Source: Escherichia coli
GTDB taxonomy: Bacteria; Pseudomonadota; Gammaproteobacteria; Enterobacterales; Enterobacteriaceae
Strand: one strand, 5' to 3'
Assembly (NCBI RefSeq): GCF_003019035.1
Contig: NZ_CP027447.1
Length of the DNA: 64,000 bases
The notes under the pieces are model-generated. The model did no database searches. It saw only the letters and a program-made list of their open reading frames with translations, and was not told the origin of the DNA. A program made the translations under genes and the position numbers. Positions 21,632 through 62,322 of this stretch are shown piece by piece (position 1 is the stretch's first letter; every line of letters begins with the position of its first letter).

Positions 21632-24424
<2,793 letters not shown>

Positions 24425-25483
24425 ATGGTATTCAGAATAGCTAGCTCCCCTTATACCCATAACCAGCGCCAAACATCGCGCATTATGCTGTTGGTGTTGC
24501 TCGCAGCCGTGCCAGGAATCGCAGCGCAACTGTGGTTTTTTGGTTGGGGTACTCTCGTTCAGATCCTGTTGGCGTCGGTCAGTGCTCTGTTAGCCGAAGC
24601 TCTCGTACTCAAACTACGCAAGCAGTCGGTAGCCGCAACGTTGAAAGATAACTCAGCATTGCTGACAGGCTTATTGCTGGCGGTAAGTATTCCCCCCCTC
24701 GCGCCATGGTGGATGGTCGTACTGGGTACGGTGTTTGCGGTGATCATCGCTAAACAGTTGTATGGCGGTCTGGGGCAAAACCCGTTTAATCCGGCAATGA
24801 TTGGTTATGTGGTCTTACTGATCTCCTTCCCGGTGCAGATGACCAGCTGGTTACCGCCGCATGAAATTGCGGTCAACATCCCTGGTTTTATCGACGCCAT
24901 ACAGGTTATTTTCAGCGGTCATACCGCCAGTGGTGGTGATATGAACACGCTACGCTTAGGTATTGATGGCATTAGTCAGGCGACACCGCTGGATACATTT
25001 AAAACCTCTGTCCGTGCCGGTCATTCGGTTGAAGAGATTATGCAATATCCGATCTACAGCGGTATGCTGGCGGGCGCTGGTTGGCAATGGGTAAATCTCG
25101 CCTGGCTGGCTGGCGGCGTGTGGTTGCTATGGCAGAAAGCGATTCGCTGGCATATTCCCCTCAGCTTCTTAGTAACGCTGGCGTTATGCGCAACGTTGGG
25201 CTGGTTGTTCTCACCAGATACTCTGGCAGCACCGCAAATTCATCTGCTGTCTGGTGCGACCATGCTCGGCGCATTCTTTATTTTGACTGACCCGGTTACC
25301 GCTTCTACGACCAATCGTGGTCGTCTTATTTTCGGCGCGCTGGCGGGCTTATTAGTCTGGTTGATCCGCAGTTTCGGCGGCTATCCTGACGGCGTTGCTT
25401 TTGCCGTCCTGCTGGCGAACATCACGGTTCCTCTGATCGATTACTACACGCGTCCGCGCGTCTACGGCCATCGCAAAGGGTAA
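24425..25483 (+). CDS. rsxD: Rsx/Rnf complex subunit D
   Basis: 352-aa polytopic membrane protein. Confidence 0.95.
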
Positions 25484-58188: not shown

Positions 58189-58514
58189 TATTGACCTCCG
58201 GTATTGCGGTACTGCTGTACCACTTCCAGTTTGTTGTAAAGTGCGTCCAGTTTGGCCTCGATGACTGTCTGGCCACGGATATAATCCTCGCGACGGACAT
58301 AATTCAGCGGTAAATCCGCTTTAAATCGCATAAATTCCTTTTCCAGCTCGCCCCAGTTGGAGGCGGACTGTTGCAGGGCCTGTTCAAGGGAGGCGAATCG
58401 TGCCGCCTGGCGTTCTTCTGTTTTACTGAACAACCATTTGGCGAGCCCTCCAACAAACCCCATGAAGGTGAGCAGAAAACTCACCACCGTCCAGAATTCA
58501 ACCTGCAGTGTCAT
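58188..58514 (-). CDS. Hypothetical membrane protein (Mu gp25 position)
   Basis: 108-aa ORF with one N-terminal TM helix. Confidence 0.4.
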   Translation of the reverse strand: MTLQVEFWTVVSFLLTFMGFVGGLAKWLFSKTEERQAARFASLEQALQQSASNWGELEKEFMRFKADLPLNYVRREDYIRGQTVIEAKLDALYNKLEVVQQYRNTGGQ

Positions 58515-59164
58515 TTCTGTAATCCTTCCCGTTCATCCAGCAGCGCGTTTATCTGGTTTCGCCAGCGACGACATTGCCCTGCGTTGTCGATGATGTTGGC
58601 GAGGACGTCACGCTGGGAGACACCCGAATTGCGTAACCGGGCGTCAGCGGTTTCAGGTTGCCCGGTCGCTGCGCCAGTGCCGGTGCCAGCGGCGGCAGTT
58701 GCGTCTGAATGACCGGTGTCGACGGATGCGTTGTCATACCCGAGTGCGGCGTTGTACTGGCGCACGAAACCGCGAGTAAACACGCACTCAATGGGATGGC
58801 TCTTACCTTTTTCATCAATCCAGCGCTGTGTGACATCGTTAATTTGCCCCTGTAGTTGTTTGTTCAGGCTCTCCAGTTGAGCAATCTGCTCAAGATAACC
58901 GGCTTCAGCCCGCTGCCCGGCGGCCACCTGCTCCTGATACCGTTTTGCCCATGCTCGCAACGCAGCGTTCTCAAGCATTGCCTGCTCCGTTTTGTATGTG
59001 TCGAATGCTGACTGCAACTCACTGATCGCCTTATCGCCGTCGCGCGTGGCGTTTTCATGCCCGCTTTTGTAGCCCAGGTAATAAAGTCCAATCAGAAAAG
59101 CATTTATGAGCACAGCCAGCAGCAGACTGCGCCACGGCAGATTTTTTAGCAGGTTAGTCCACAC
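58511..59164 (-). CDS. Rz-like inner-membrane spanin
   Basis: 217-aa ORF with an N-terminal TM helix and coiled-coil periplasmic region; contains an embedded +1-frame lipoprotein ORF. Confidence 0.65.
   Translation of the reverse strand: MWTNLLKNLPWRSLLLAVLINAFLIGLYYLGYKSGHENATRDGDKAISELQSAFDTYKTEQAMLENAALRAWAKRYQEQVAAGQRAEAGYLEQIAQLESLNKQLQGQINDVTQRWIDEKGKSHPIECVFTRGFVRQYNAALGYDNASVDTGHSDATAAAGTGTGAATGQPETADARLRNSGVSQRDVLANIIDNAGQCRRWRNQINALLDEREGLQK
58549..58815 (-). CDS. Rz1-like outer-membrane lipoprotein spanin, embedded in the Rz-like gene
   Basis: MKKVRAIPLSACLLAVSC signal/lipobox followed by a Pro-rich sequence; ATG at 58813-58815 checked by hand. Confidence 0.6.
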   Translation of the reverse strand: MKKVRAIPLSACLLAVSCASTTPHSGMTTHPSTPVIQTQLPPLAPALAQRPGNLKPLTPGYAIRVSPSVTSSPTSSTTQGNVVAGETR

Positions 59165-59882
59165 AGCTGCCGCCCCCCCATGTCAGATAACGGGGGGCCA
59201 GTTCGTGCAGGATGCGCTGCGGATAATGGCGGTTCTCCCGCCAGCTGGCAGCATTGCGTCCGGCATTCACCGTGGCGACATGCCCGAACCAGCGGGTACT
59301 GTCCAGGCCTTTCTGTGATGCTAGCTGCCTGTCCCGTTGTACCCAGCCCAGACCACCGTTATAGCCCGACAGTGTCATGGCCATACGTTCGCAGTCACTG
59401 GCGGCGCTGACGCGCTGCCACAGCCAGCGGTCATAGCTGACCAGCGCCCGGATGGCCCATGCCGGATTAAACGGCTCACGGCTGTTAAGCCCCGGCATCA
59501 GCTGACTTATCCAGTCAGCAGTGGCGGGCATGAACTGCGCCAGTCCCTGAGCGCCAGCCGGCGAGACCGCATCAGGTCGCCAGCCGCTTTCCTGATGCAG
59601 TTGCGCAGCGAAATCGGCCACCGGCGCAGACAGTCCCCATTCAAGCCGGGCATTACGGATCACATCATCGCGATACTGCAGCGCAGCCTGCGGAGGCTGC
59701 GCTGCGCGGGCCTGACTGAAGAAGCCGCCACACCAGAGCAGCCAGACAATCACCAGGTTGCCAGCAAGCTGCCACCAGAAGCTGTATTTATCGTTACGTG
59801 GTTCTCCGTGTCTGATGGCGGTTACGCCCAGACCAAAGGCGAACAGAATAATGAGGGTGATTTGAGGCCAGTTCATGGTCAC
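59154..59882 (-). CDS. Lytic transglycosylase (SLT-domain) endolysin with N-terminal hydrophobic segments
   Basis: 242-aa ORF; SLT catalytic region LHQESGW...GLAQFMPAT; two N-terminal hydrophobic stretches. Confidence 0.8.
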   Translation of the reverse strand: MTMNWPQITLIILFAFGLGVTAIRHGEPRNDKYSFWWQLAGNLVIVWLLWCGGFFSQARAAQPPQAALQYRDDVIRNARLEWGLSAPVADFAAQLHQESGWRPDAVSPAGAQGLAQFMPATADWISQLMPGLNSREPFNPAWAIRALVSYDRWLWQRVSAASDCERMAMTLSGYNGGLGWVQRDRQLASQKGLDSTRWFGHVATVNAGRNAASWRENRHYPQRILHELAPRYLTWGGGSCVD

Positions 59883-60262
59883 AGTCCTGTTGCCACAGCC
59901 AGACAGACCGCTGCAACAATCAGTGCACGGCGGATTAACGCAGCAGAAAATACAAGGTGAAGGCCGGTCTGCACAGGGAAACGCCCTTCAGCCATCAGCC
60001 TGTCTTCATGTTTCAGGTACTGACCGGGACGGGCTTTGGGGAAGAGTGAACGGTCAAGCCAGTAACCCAGCACTGCTGCCAGCGTGATGAGTGCCAGCTT
60101 GTAGATCACAACAGGCAGCTGCTGTGGCGAGACCAGAGCGATGGTGCCCAGCAACAGCACTGAGGTCAGCAGCCAGCCGCTGAGGCGAGGTTTTTTAACA
60201 GGGGGAATGAATTTTTTCAGGTTTTTCATGTGTGTCTCCTTGTCTGGTGGAGACAGCATCAC
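59879..60262 (-). CDS. Putative holin / lysis-associated membrane protein
   Basis: 127-aa ORF with about 3 predicted TM helices, first gene of the lysis cluster. Confidence 0.45.
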   Translation of the reverse strand: MMLSPPDKETHMKNLKKFIPPVKKPRLSGWLLTSVLLLGTIALVSPQQLPVVIYKLALITLAAVLGYWLDRSLFPKARPGQYLKHEDRLMAEGRFPVQTGLHLVFSAALIRRALIVAAVCLAVATGL

Positions 60263-60359: not shown

Positions 60360-60785
60360 ATGACGCAGACACTGAATCCGGTCATCACTGTCACCGTGTC
60401 CGGTCCTGTGGGCAGCGGTAAAAGTTACGTACTGGCGCGGATAGAAGAGATGGTGAAACAGGAACCCGGAAACAGCGTCATTGTCGATGCTGCTGACGTG
60501 GAGAATGAGCGCCGTATGAGTGGGGATGATCTGAGCACATGGCAGAAACCACAGGCAGGTACAATTATCCGACTGGAAGAATACACTGAGCGGGTAACTC
60601 TATCATATAGTGAGGAGCGCATTTGCCTGACGAATGCACTGCTGGAAGTTATATGTCCCGAAGGCAAGAGCCCCTGGATACTACCCGATGCTGTACATGC
60701 CGCAATTGCTGCATTGTTCGTATTATACGATCAGGAGCTGGTTTTAATGGAGTTATGTAAGGTTATTAAAGCTACAGAAAAGTAA
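60360..60785 (+). CDS. Small P-loop (Walker A GPVGSGKS) protein, hypothetical
   Basis: 141-aa plus-strand ORF with a good Shine-Dalgarno (gaggag); oriented opposite to the late operon. Confidence 0.5.
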   Translation: MTQTLNPVITVTVSGPVGSGKSYVLARIEEMVKQEPGNSVIVDAADVENERRMSGDDLSTWQKPQAGTIIRLEEYTERVTLSYSEERICLTNALLEVICPEGKSPWILPDAVHAAIAALFVLYDQELVLMELCKVIKATEK

Positions 60786-60860: not shown

Positions 60861-61355
60861 CTAGATAAAACCATCATAGAAGTCATCCCTCTTACGAGAC
60901 CTGATACGAACTGGATTTGGCTCTCCTTTCAACCATACAGCACTGTTTTGACCACAAACCGGACACATGCAAAAACTGTCTTTTCGTATATGCAGGATAC
61001 TTTTCAGGTTTTTGGAATCAAAACAAGTCTGGCAAATATAATGTTCAGTTTCATCGTTTCCCGTATAACGATAAGCATAGAAGCCTTTTTCTTCACTCAG
61101 TAACGTCAGTTTATAATTACCGCGAAAGTTAAGAAGGTCTTCCAGAGAGCGAATTTTCTCTTCCAGATTGGTAATGGTTTTTTGCTGTTCTCCTAGCTTG
61201 CTCGTTACCTCAAAGAACTGCCCCTGTGCTTCAATAATTTTACTCTGTAATTCACTGGTCAAAGCGGCCTGTTTTATTTGATCACGCTCTTTTATTATTT
61301 TCTGAGCAGTACTGCTGATATAGCCAAGAGCTGTTAATAAAGCGTTTGTATCCAT
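60861..61355 (-). CDS. Hypothetical coiled-coil protein with C-terminal Cys4 zinc-ribbon-like motif
   Basis: Start chosen at MDTNALLTALGY; ends CQTCF...CMCPVCG; sits in a visibly AT-rich stretch (about 60800-61400). Confidence 0.5.
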   Translation of the reverse strand: MDTNALLTALGYISSTAQKIIKERDQIKQAALTSELQSKIIEAQGQFFEVTSKLGEQQKTITNLEEKIRSLEDLLNFRGNYKLTLLSEEKGFYAYRYTGNDETEHYICQTCFDSKNLKSILHIRKDSFCMCPVCGQNSAVWLKGEPNPVRIRSRKRDDFYDGFI

Positions 61356-61557
61356 AGCACCCCGATATCCTCTAAACCACATTAACAGAAATCACTTCAT
61401 CCCTGCCGCATCATGAAAGAACGACCAGCCCGGCACCCGAAAGCCGGGCTGGTCATCGTCCCACAGGAATGCACTGTGAGCCGACCGAGGTTCAGTCAGT
61501 CTCGCGAGACCAGACTAGCCTGCCATATTTTTAATAATTGTAAAAGGCTTACAGATT

Positions 61558-62322
61558 ATGAAAATGCAGTCATTACCCATCGTTCCATGGATTGGTGGCA
61601 AACGCCGCCTTGCAAAACACATTCTGCCGCTGTTTCCGGCGCATGAATGTTATGTGGAGCCGTTTTGTGGGGCAGCAGCGCTCTATTTTCTTAAGACACC
61701 CGGCAAGATCGAAGTCATTAATGATATCAACGGTGAACTGGTGAATCTGTACCGGGTGGTAAAGCATCACCTGGAAGAATTTGTCCACCAGTTCAAATGG
61801 GCGCTGGTCAGCCGTCAGATCTACAAGTGGCTGCAGATCACCCCGGAAGAAACACTGACGGATATCCAGCGTGCAGCACGGTTCTACTACCTCCAGAAGC
61901 AGGCGTTTGGCGGCAAGGTAGCAGAACACAGCTTCGGTACCTCCACCACATCCCCGCCACGCTTCAACCTGCTGCGTATTGAAGAAGAACTGTCAGCGGC
62001 ACACCTGCGACTTTCCAGAACAGTCATAGAACACATGGACTGGCAACAGTGCATTGAGCGCTATGATCGTCCGCACACGCTGTTCTACTGTGATCCGCCG
62101 TATCTGGGTACGGAAGGCTATGGTGTGGATTTTCCTGAAGGGAACTACTCGCGGCTGGCAGAGCTGGCCCGGTGCATCAGAGGAAAAATGATAATTTCGG
62201 TGAACGACATCCCGCAGATGCGCGAGGTGTTCACTGGACTGAACATACAGACAGTGAATATCAACTACAGTCTGGCGGGGAAACCCACGCCGCGCCGTGA
62301 ACTGATAATCTGCAACTTCTGA
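61558..62322 (+). CDS. DNA adenine methyltransferase (Dam / D12 class N6-adenine MTase)
   Basis: 254-aa ORF with an N-terminal AdoMet-binding region and the DPPY catalytic motif (YCDPPYLGTEGYG). Confidence 0.85.
   Translation: MKMQSLPIVPWIGGKRRLAKHILPLFPAHECYVEPFCGAAALYFLKTPGKIEVINDINGELVNLYRVVKHHLEEFVHQFKWALVSRQIYKWLQITPEETLTDIQRAARFYYLQKQAFGGKVAEHSFGTSTTSPPRFNLLRIEEELSAAHLRLSRTVIEHMDWQQCIERYDRPHTLFYCDPPYLGTEGYGVDFPEGNYSRLAELARCIRGKMIISVNDIPQMREVFTGLNIQTVNINYSLAGKPTPRRELIICNF

Follow-up and report, generated by a model that had tools for sequence, protein, structure and literature searches.

The 64,000-nucleotide stretch of Escherichia coli contig NZ_CP027447.1 (RefSeq assembly GCF_003019035.1) analysed here, referred to as the window, includes a phage lysis module whose endolysin begins with two hydrophobic segments. 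This raises the question of how the enzyme reaches the periplasm and how its activity is timed. An earlier reading of the letters alone (the sequence-only reading) considered the endolysin compatible with a signal-anchor-release (SAR) type enzyme and described an Rz gene with an embedded Rz1 downstream. As judged by gene order and protein families, the block belongs to a transposable BcepMu-like prophage (Bcepmuvirus) in the E. coli chromosome and forms its late lysis operon, in which the endolysin is probably made as a hairpin precursor cut by signal peptidase I, with lysis triggered by the holin and finished by Rz/Rz1.

The features of the endolysin gene are as follows.

59876-59154 (alternative GTG start at 59882), minus strand: SLT lytic transglycosylase endolysin precursor, 240 or 242 aa; PF01464, phrog_669
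59876-59703, minus strand: N-terminal hairpin module with two transmembrane domains (TMDs), residues 1-58; phrog_5479, 1.6e-13
59711-59700, minus strand: predicted signal peptidase I site A56-R57-A58/A59; conserved junction columns
59600-59310, minus strand: SLT catalytic domain, Pfam span; PF01464

The endolysin and its start codon

The endolysin had been described as a lytic transglycosylase rather than a lysozyme or amidase, and this assignment was borne out. The protein scores 54.1 bits with PF01464, where the cut-off is 21.3 (E 1.4e-14), and matches the endolysin family phrog_669 with 5.7e-70. The candidate catalytic glutamate, E96 (numbered from the ATG at 59876; codon 59591-59589, motif HQESGW), falls on Glu478 in an alignment to Slt70 (1sly/1qsa), which we take to be the catalytic residue of that enzyme. 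E96 and the motifs GLAQFMP and GYNGGLGW, both present, are invariant among 61 homologues. Also invariant are C162 and C238, which would fit an oxidising periplasmic location.

RefSeq begins the lysin at the upstream GTG, and the annotation of Klebsiella phage KP12 gives the 240-aa form. Of the two codons, the ATG at 59876 is more likely to be the start, because free-standing homologues of the N-terminal hairpin begin with M-x-x-P-Q. An in-frame internal start, which would give a dual-start product from the loop between the two segments, was rejected, as there is no ATG, GTG or TTG between TM1 and TM2.

The N-terminal hairpin belongs to a separate protein family

The two N-terminal hydrophobic segments are real. 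TM1 covers approximately residues 6-21 (59861-59814) and is followed by a loop, RHGEPRNDKYS, by TM2 at approximately residues 33-53 (59780-59718) and by the c-region SQARA. The segments are beyond chance, since residues 3-56 of the lysin match positions 1-53 of the phrog_5479 profile, which is the full model, at E 1.6e-13. Hence the hairpin is a distinct protein family fused to the lysin, a point absent from the sequence-only reading.

A word-indexed homologue search with the 58-aa hairpin returned only fragments of the same lysin and was abandoned for an exhaustive profile search, which found 2253 clusters containing the hairpin at E <= 1e-3. Among the best 150 of these, 96 are free-standing proteins (<=80 aa, mostly ending 1-5 residues past GGFF), at least 32 are ~110-aa tandem doubles, and only 2 are full-length SLT fusions. 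A typical member of phrog_5479 is a free-standing protein of 53-60 aa, whereas the window copy forms the N-terminus of a lysin of 240 aa. No family was assigned to the hairpin proteins in scans against Pfam and NCBIfam. The family motifs are kept in the fused lysins, namely the W-P-Q N-tail, the HG.P..GK loop and LLW.GGFF, and W3, Q5, L47, G50, G51, F52 and F53 are invariant there.

Two free-standing members are of particular relevance. In the Pseudomonas B3-like phage JBD67, gp20 (52 aa, MGAPQIIWIML...VWWGGFFG then stop; phrog_5479, 1.8e-29) is encoded between the holin and the endolysin, and its stop codon overlaps the endolysin start. In Xanthomonas phage FoX2, gp47 (MHTPQLIYLALMFVGFGITVSKHGQPETGKHNAWFALIANALVVTLLWWGGFFSQP then stop) is 44% identical to the N-terminus of the window lysin and ends exactly where the AxA site of the latter begins. 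The 31-aa ORF 3' of gp47, FoX2 gp46, is labelled 'putative lytic murein transglycosylase' and contains no SLT sequence. The label probably stems from proteins in which hairpin and SLT domain are fused.

The mean number of Lys and Arg residues is 2.57 in the hairpin loop, compared with 0.00 in the N-tail. By the positive-inside rule, the basic loop and the uncharged N-tail predict an N-out, loop-in, C-out topology, and the SLT domain would therefore lie in the periplasm. This placement agrees with where orthologues carrying ordinary signal peptides (see below) must place it.

A conserved, predicted signal peptidase site at the junction

The loop RHGEPRNDKYS, TM2 and SQARA/A (the slash here and below marks a predicted cut) have the layout of a Sec signal peptide, with an n-region, an h-region, a c-region of five residues and Ala, not Pro, at +1. 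A Sec signal is expected at the extreme N-terminus, and TM1 (residues 6-21) precedes this one, which is at best an internal signal.

The AxA-like site that had been pointed out at the join of the hairpin and the lysin is present and conserved. In the alignment of 56 distinct fused lysins, the columns around the junction are composed as follows.

Position -3: Ala in 52 of 56, entropy 0.44 bits
Position -2: N, H, R, A, Q, S, D or C, entropy 2.92 bits, the most variable column
Position -1: Ala in 54 of 56, entropy 0.22 bits
Position +1: Ala in 51 of 56, entropy 0.61 bits

A strict AxA occurs in 52 of the 56 SLT fusions and in 0 of 36 hairpin-hairpin junctions of the tandem proteins. Alanine at -3 and -1, the variable -2 position and the restriction of AxA to SLT fusions together form the signature expected of a selected signal peptidase I site. 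Cleavage after A58 is accordingly the favoured outcome, and would yield a soluble lysin starting with AQPP (AQPPQAALQYR) and a residual hairpin.

The main rival to cleavage is a stable tether, in which the hairpin is an uncleaved bitopic anchor and the SLT domain works while attached, or is held inactive until the holin reorganises the membrane. Activity in the attached state would parallel that of the host enzyme MltG, a tether would explain how premature lysis is avoided, and conservation of the hairpin motifs in the fused form suggests a role beyond that of a disposable signal. Against this explanation stands the pattern at -3 and -1, with -2 hypervariable, that is confined to the SLT fusions and absent where one hairpin simply follows another. 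Moreover, orthologues ~70-80% identical to the window lysin use cleavable signal peptides or lipoboxes; orthologues with classical signals imply that the enzyme works without a hairpin anchoring it to the inner membrane. A permanent tether is therefore considered possible though unlikely, and cleavage by signal peptidase I remains the preferred reading.

A lipobox at LLWC within TM2 was rejected, since Trp at -1 rules it out.

Export signals differ between close orthologues

Orthologues of the lysin (~65-98% identical overall), together with remoter phage homologues, differ in the type of N-terminus that they carry. The hairpin is found in 77 of the 112 sequences compared. In the others, several forms stand in its place. 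Classical signal peptides are represented by MANRIRNNDPGTGLLLLLFILLLVGALDSDA/AQPP and MRHLLITLLVSPMLFSATVCA/DTIP, and by the signal of BcepMu gp22, MRVLIAFVVALLGAAAPVAA/Q (...APVAA/QVP), while lipobox signals are present in JBD67 (LLSA/C) and P0111 (LLSG/C). A second two-TMD form, unrelated to the hairpin, occurs in P0065 and P0112. Finally, there are collapsed forms with a single TMD, in which the start of TM1 is joined to the end of TM2, for example MIMNWRQMIGIMLLWCGGLVSPVLA/DEPP. The collapsed forms, which include P0054 and P0114, resemble the product of an internal deletion, and an Arg has been gained in the N-tail of 3 of 5 of them. Two-TMD and one-TMD export signals thus seem to interconvert readily.

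All of these N-termini close with a small-x-small motif, which immediately precedes the conserved mature start [AD][QE]PP. At the loci inspected, a holin gene lies directly 5' and no separate hairpin gene was seen. As compared across these sequences, the export signal of the endolysin appears to be a cassette that is swappable between close orthologues, and the dominant enterobacterial version appears to be a recruited small membrane protein joined via a conserved signal peptidase site. Both features appear to be new. No description of a two-TMD SLT endolysin was found in the searchable literature, the coverage of which is incomplete, making this weak and provisional evidence of novelty.

The SAR reading

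SAR domains are single, weakly hydrophobic N-terminal segments rich in Gly, Ala, Ser and Thr (G/A/S/T), which are not cleaved and are not followed by a peptidase site. In a SAR endolysin, the N-terminus holds the enzyme inactive and exits the bilayer uncleaved upon depolarisation by a pinholin. The window lysin departs from this description in having two segments instead of a single G/A/S/T-rich TMD, and a peptidase site after the second. Compared as crude composition and scale sums, which do not constitute a predictor, the G/A/S/T content is 21% in TM2 and 32% in TM1 against 53-67% in the experimentally shown SAR domain of Mu gp22 (PMC9239132), and the hydropathy of TM2 is moderate (Kyte-Doolittle 1.43 over 19 residues). 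Both segments are more hydrophobic and far less rich in Gly and Ala than the proven SAR domain, which fits the tether as well.

The moderate hydrophobicity of TM2 and its Gly-Gly pair are nevertheless features that a SAR domain could have, and SAR transglycosylases have been reported from Pseudomonas Mu-like siphophages (PMC9239132). In addition, a membrane protein predicted to be N-out/C-in is encoded downstream, in the gp25 position, like the releasin in Mu. Against this, release of TM2 would drag the basic loop and the strongly hydrophobic TM1 through the membrane, and the peptidase site is conserved at the junction. The signal peptides of orthologues are Leu-rich and not SAR-like, and the downstream protein has no DUF2730 homology (hhalign probability 8.7%). 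The Cys in TM2 is also not conserved (C in 43, S in 9 and W in 3 of 56), and its variability makes a thiol switch of the P1 Lyz type unlikely.

In summary, with two segments, a TM2 poor in G/A/S/T, a conserved peptidase site and orthologues using Leu-rich signals, the assignment to the SAR type is not supported and is judged quite improbable. For the second segment, cleavage as a signal peptide, the outcome that the sequence-only reading had itself set against a SAR domain, is the more likely one. A precedent is the T4 antiholin RI, whose presumed SAR domain turned out to be a cleaved signal peptide (PMC8385771).

Proposed export and control of the endolysin

In the preferred reading, the lysin would be made as a precursor, the first 58 residues of which are a two-helix hairpin taken over from a family of small membrane proteins that is widespread among phages. 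The uncharged N-tail would pass to the periplasm and the basic loop would remain in the cytoplasm, so that the loop and TM2 would act as an internal Sec-type signal placing the SLT domain of the Sec/YidC-inserted precursor in the periplasm. Signal peptidase I would then cut after A56-x-A58 and produce a soluble transglycosylase of 182 aa, starting with AQPP, and an inner-membrane hairpin of ~58 aa. The leftover hairpin would be the counterpart of the free-standing protein encoded between holin and endolysin in B3-like phages. The periplasmic enzyme would cause lysis only once triggering of the PF13272 holin has collapsed the membrane potential, after which the complex of Rz (inner membrane) and Rz1 (outer-membrane lipoprotein) would disrupt the outer membrane.

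The role given to the holin is drawn by analogy with Lys44, a secreted endolysin that needs membrane depolarisation in order to act, its timing being set by the loss of potential that the holin drives. For an internal signal sequence cut by signal peptidase, the cytochrome b-c1 precursor of Bradyrhizobium is presumably a precedent.

Several points weigh against this scheme. The AlphaFold model of the lysin, built from the 61-sequence alignment, has a pLDDT of 59.7 and lends it no structural support. Conservation of A-x-A-A-Q-P-P could in part reflect descent from an ancestral signal-peptide c-region and not present selection, and a hairpin with conserved WPQ, HG.P..GK and GGFF motifs might be a permanent anchor or regulator while attached. 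A lysin that is soluble in the periplasm before the holin triggers would need some further restraint. In addition, the three free-standing hairpin genes that were located lie in replication or early modules, beside DnaB, RusA, DUF669 and the pol III beta clamp. As judged by these positions outside lysis cassettes, a lysis role of the hairpin itself is unproven.

A bolder form of the proposal regards the lysin as a natural 'polyprotein' from which the host signal peptidase makes two working parts, a soluble periplasmic transglycosylase and a 58-residue membrane hairpin with a function of its own. This is put forward tentatively and is more doubtful than cleavage itself. The hairpin that is split off might tune the triggering of the holin, or might couple release of the lysin to membrane energisation through insertion of its N-tail dependent on the proton motive force (PMF). 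If true, this would be a third route of endolysin export and control beside the holin-gated and SAR routes, and would give the first functional handle on an unannotated family with >2000 clusters of small phage membrane proteins. Even if the site is simply cut, it would be a rare case in bacteria or phages in which a fusion protein is split at an internal signal sequence, and a caution against labelling every hydrophobic endolysin N-terminus 'SAR', as the case of T4 RI has shown (PMC8385771).

Rz and the embedded Rz1

The spanin genes are as follows.

59164-58511, minus strand: Rz-like i-spanin, 217 aa; phrog_1403, 8.1e-88
58836 (or 58815)-58549, minus strand: Rz1-like o-spanin, embedded in Rz in the +1 frame, 95 aa from 58836; lipobox

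The sequence-only reading was correct in placing a Pro-rich lipoprotein ORF in the +1 frame wholly inside the Rz-like gene (58836-58549 within 59164-58511). Its view that this is the classical embedded two-component spanin arrangement is upheld by the phrog_1403 match of Rz and by an ORF with a lipobox, the frame and Cys of which are conserved in ~60 loci.

Rz, in the slot of BcepMu gp23, has an N-terminal TMD at residues 13-31 (59128-59072), and the basic residues K7 and R12 ahead of it predict an N-in/C-out topology. The AlphaFold2 model (overall pLDDT 60) includes a helix at residues 11-113 (pLDDT 76-85 at 40-100) and a second helix at 184-216, between which a Gly/Ala/Thr linker is disordered at 140-179; Rz1 is encoded across this linker. 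Two periplasmic cysteines, C126 and C198, are present in Rz, and there are none in mature Rz1, a distribution that is common among spanins. At least one periplasmic Cys in either subunit was found in 507 of 528 spanin systems (PMC6139136).

Rz1 may start at the ATG at 58836 (MSHSAGLMKKV...) or at the ATG at 58815 (MKKVRAIPLSACLLAVSC). The lipobox is LLAVS/C, with the Cys at 58764-58762, and the signal reads MKKVRAIPLSACLLAVS/C-A-S. Asp at +2 is the rule for retention of lipoproteins in the inner membrane. With Ala, not Asp, after the Cys, Rz1 is expected in the outer membrane, and is thus predicted to be a lipidated outer-membrane o-spanin. The mature form comprises 71 aa, of which 14-16% are Pro. 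An alternative, lipidation at the first Cys (PLSA/C), was rejected because only the second Cys is conserved and because basic residues and Pro lie too near the first.

The Rz1 ORF lies in the distal half of Rz, spanning from 0.50-0.53 to 0.94 of its length (L). For ~70% of embedded spanins the start lies at ~0.4-0.5 L and the end at 0.9-1 L (PMC6139136), so that the end of Rz1 is within the typical range and its start is at the upper edge.

The length of the +1 ORF was discarded as evidence for Rz1, since 1478 of 5000 synonymous recodings of Rz (30%) reach the observed 104 stop-free codons. The lipoprotein signal is more telling. An alternative-frame ORF that has a start codon and a basic n-region as well as a hydrophobic stretch and a lipobox, and that runs on for 40 codons or more, was found in 32 of 3000 recodings of Rz and in 2 of 52 long ORFs of the window, one of the two being Rz. 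The other is a 435-aa antisense ORF in rsxC (23222-24529, minus strand); the lipoprotein-signal match within it is most likely due to chance, and served as a background rate.

The frame, the position and the second Cys, as LL[AVL][AV]S/C followed by [AS][ST]TTP, are conserved in ~60 related IMG/VR loci and in BcepMu gp24, and the LPPLP and L[TI]PGYA motifs of the Pro-rich body are likewise kept. Third-position divergence among 65 Rz genes is 0.53 ahead of the overlap and 0.32 inside it, a drop that is consistent with double coding, although the overlap is also more conserved overall. In the records of KP12, PhiKM and E. coli A20, the embedded Rz1 is unannotated and Rz goes under the name 'putative lipoprotein' or 'hypothetical protein'. 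Such omissions are common, as 196 of the 528 o-spanins in the census had been left unannotated (PMC6139136).

Gene order and genomic context

The lysis module extends beyond the limits given earlier, to a holin on the 5' side and to the gp25-position membrane protein on the 3' side. The remaining genes of the block are as follows.

60229-59879, minus strand: holin, 116 aa; PF13272 Holin_2-3, 1.5e-40; phrog_1528, 1e-53
58514-58188, minus strand: gp25-position membrane protein, 108 aa; phrog_462, 1.6e-36
58188-57877, minus strand: unnamed protein in the gp26-like slot, 103 aa
57880-57326, minus strand: TerS, 184 aa; Mu gp27 family
57329-56013, minus strand: TerL, 438 aa; Terminase_6N/6C

All genes of the block are on the minus strand, in the order holin, SLT endolysin, Rz with embedded Rz1, gp25-position membrane protein, gp26-like protein, TerS and TerL, and synteny with BcepMu gp21-gp28 is complete, gene for gene. 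Adjacent genes abut or overlap by 1-11 nt, as expected for a single operon.

The holin, in the slot of BcepMu gp21, scored 138 bits against a cut-off of 27 for PF13272, has three hydrophobic stretches and adjoins the endolysin, its stop codon abutting or overlapping the lysin start. It begins at the ATG at 60229 (MKNLKK...), 7 nt downstream of AAGGAG, though the mechanical ORF reaches 60262. No sigma-70 promoter was found 5' of the holin, and this is uninformative, because late promoters of Mu-like phages are expected to be activator-dependent.

The start of the gene for the 108-aa protein overlaps the Rz stop codon (ATGA), and the protein is probably part of the lysis operon. It has an N-terminal TMD and a helical cytoplasmic domain with a predicted N-out/C-in topology, and is syntenic with BcepMu gp25 and JBD67 gp23. 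Encoded two genes 3' of the lysin and built as MTLQVE, TMD and KWLFSKTEERQAAR, it has one trait of the releasin type set out for Mu (PMC9239132). Homology to the Mu releasin gp25 was considered and rejected, as there is no BLASTP alignment, no PF10805 match at E <= 10 and an hhalign probability of 8.7%; the protein also belongs to phrog_462 and not to phrog_736, so the agreement is in position and topology only. The label of phrog_462, 'lipoprotein', cannot apply to the window copy, since this lacks Cys.

Identity of 88-94% links the region to Klebsiella phage KP12, to Escherichia phage PhiKM, which is classified in the genus Bcepmuvirus, and to Phi06_2974 B. E. coli chromosome makes up the left part of the window, with an rsx operon 100% identical to that of strain SCU-301. 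Given this chromosomal location, the cassette could be a decaying prophage remnant from which the fused lysin and the embedded ORF are not expressed as functional proteins. However, the reading frames from the holin to TerL are all intact and tightly coupled, and near-identical cassettes are present in the sequenced phages KP12 and PhiKM. The architecture is also kept in 637 of 5426 complete E. coli genomes (~12%), strains B7A and ATCC 43896 among them, and in many other Enterobacterales at 65-98% identity with lengths preserved. Decay is hence hardly credible.

Two further ORFs lie between the holin and a Dam-type methylase, in a slot filled by other genes in KP12, PhiKM and E. coli A20. One (60360-60785, plus strand, 141 aa) has a weak P-loop-like N-terminus and the other (60861-61382, minus strand, 173 aa) a coiled coil and CxxC...CxxC. 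Neither gave a defence or Pfam family above noise, and the slot may be an accessory ('moron') position. The methylase gene (61558-62322, plus strand) encodes a D12-class N6-adenine DNA methyltransferase (PF02086, 3e-29; PADLOC MTase_II, 2e-111). As in related phages, this seems to be a Dam-like orphan.

Comparison with known lysis systems

The cassette and the embedded Rz/Rz1 pair are already known and belong to textbook knowledge, having been described for the type phage, BcepMu of Burkholderia. The BcepMu lysis cassette was reportedly presented by Summer et al. in 2004, and the record NC_005882 names gp22 'putative soluble lytic murein transglycosylase', gp23 'Rz' and gp24 'Rz1, out of frame, embedded proline-rich protein'. 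BcepMu and the window have the same order and families from the holin to TerL, an SLT endolysin with an N-terminal export signal and a Pro-rich Rz1 in the +1 frame with a common L[IT]PGYA motif. They differ in that gp22 carries a single short signal peptide, whereas a two-TMD hairpin of 58 residues, from a different family, takes its place in the window lysin.

In JBD67, gp19-gp23 similarly comprise a holin, a hairpin, an SLT endolysin, Rz with a +1-frame o-spanin ORF and a phrog_462 protein, and the endolysin's catalytic domain is ~60% identical to that of the window lysin. However, the JBD67 hairpin gp20 is a separate gene and the endolysin has its own lipobox, while hairpin and lysin share one frame via AxA in the window. 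The lipoprotein ORF of JBD67 extended 7 nt beyond the annotated Rz stop in the scan made here, although BcepMu and B3/JBD67 are placed among the embedded two-component spanin families in the census (PMC6139136).

Rz/Rz1 of lambda likewise combine a helical inner-membrane subunit bearing an N-terminal TMD with a Pro-rich lipoprotein that the second half of Rz encodes in its +1 frame (PMC6139136), but have no detectable sequence similarity to the window pair and belong to a different PHROG. Mature Rz1 comprises 71 aa in the window, where both Cys are in Rz and none is periplasmic in Rz1, compared with 40 aa in lambda.

E. coli Slt70 and family 1 lytic transglycosylases have the catalytic-domain motifs, including the E-S motif, in common with the window lysin. 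The match to Slt70 is distant (E 3e-6) and confined to the catalytic lobe, the large superhelical domains of Slt70 being missing from the lysin.

SAR endolysins, such as P1 Lyz, phage 21 R and Mu gp22 with its releasin gp25 (PMC9239132), use Sec export via an N-terminal hydrophobic region and not the holes made by a holin, as is proposed for the window lysin, and Mu further resembles the window in the Mu-like phage context and in a single-TMD protein in the gp25 position. The window system differs from them in its two TMDs that are not rich in Gly and Ala, the conserved peptidase site, a transglycosylase in place of a muramidase, the presence of a holin and a protein in the gp25 slot that is not DUF2730.

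Parallels to the proposed route are Lys44 of the Oenococcus phage fOg44 and the T4 antiholin RI (PMC8385771), where a lysis protein is exported by Sec and processed by signal peptidase. In those cases, the signal is at the extreme N-terminus, whereas the predicted signal of the window lysin is internal, with a TMD before it, and its cleavage would leave behind a member of an independent protein family.

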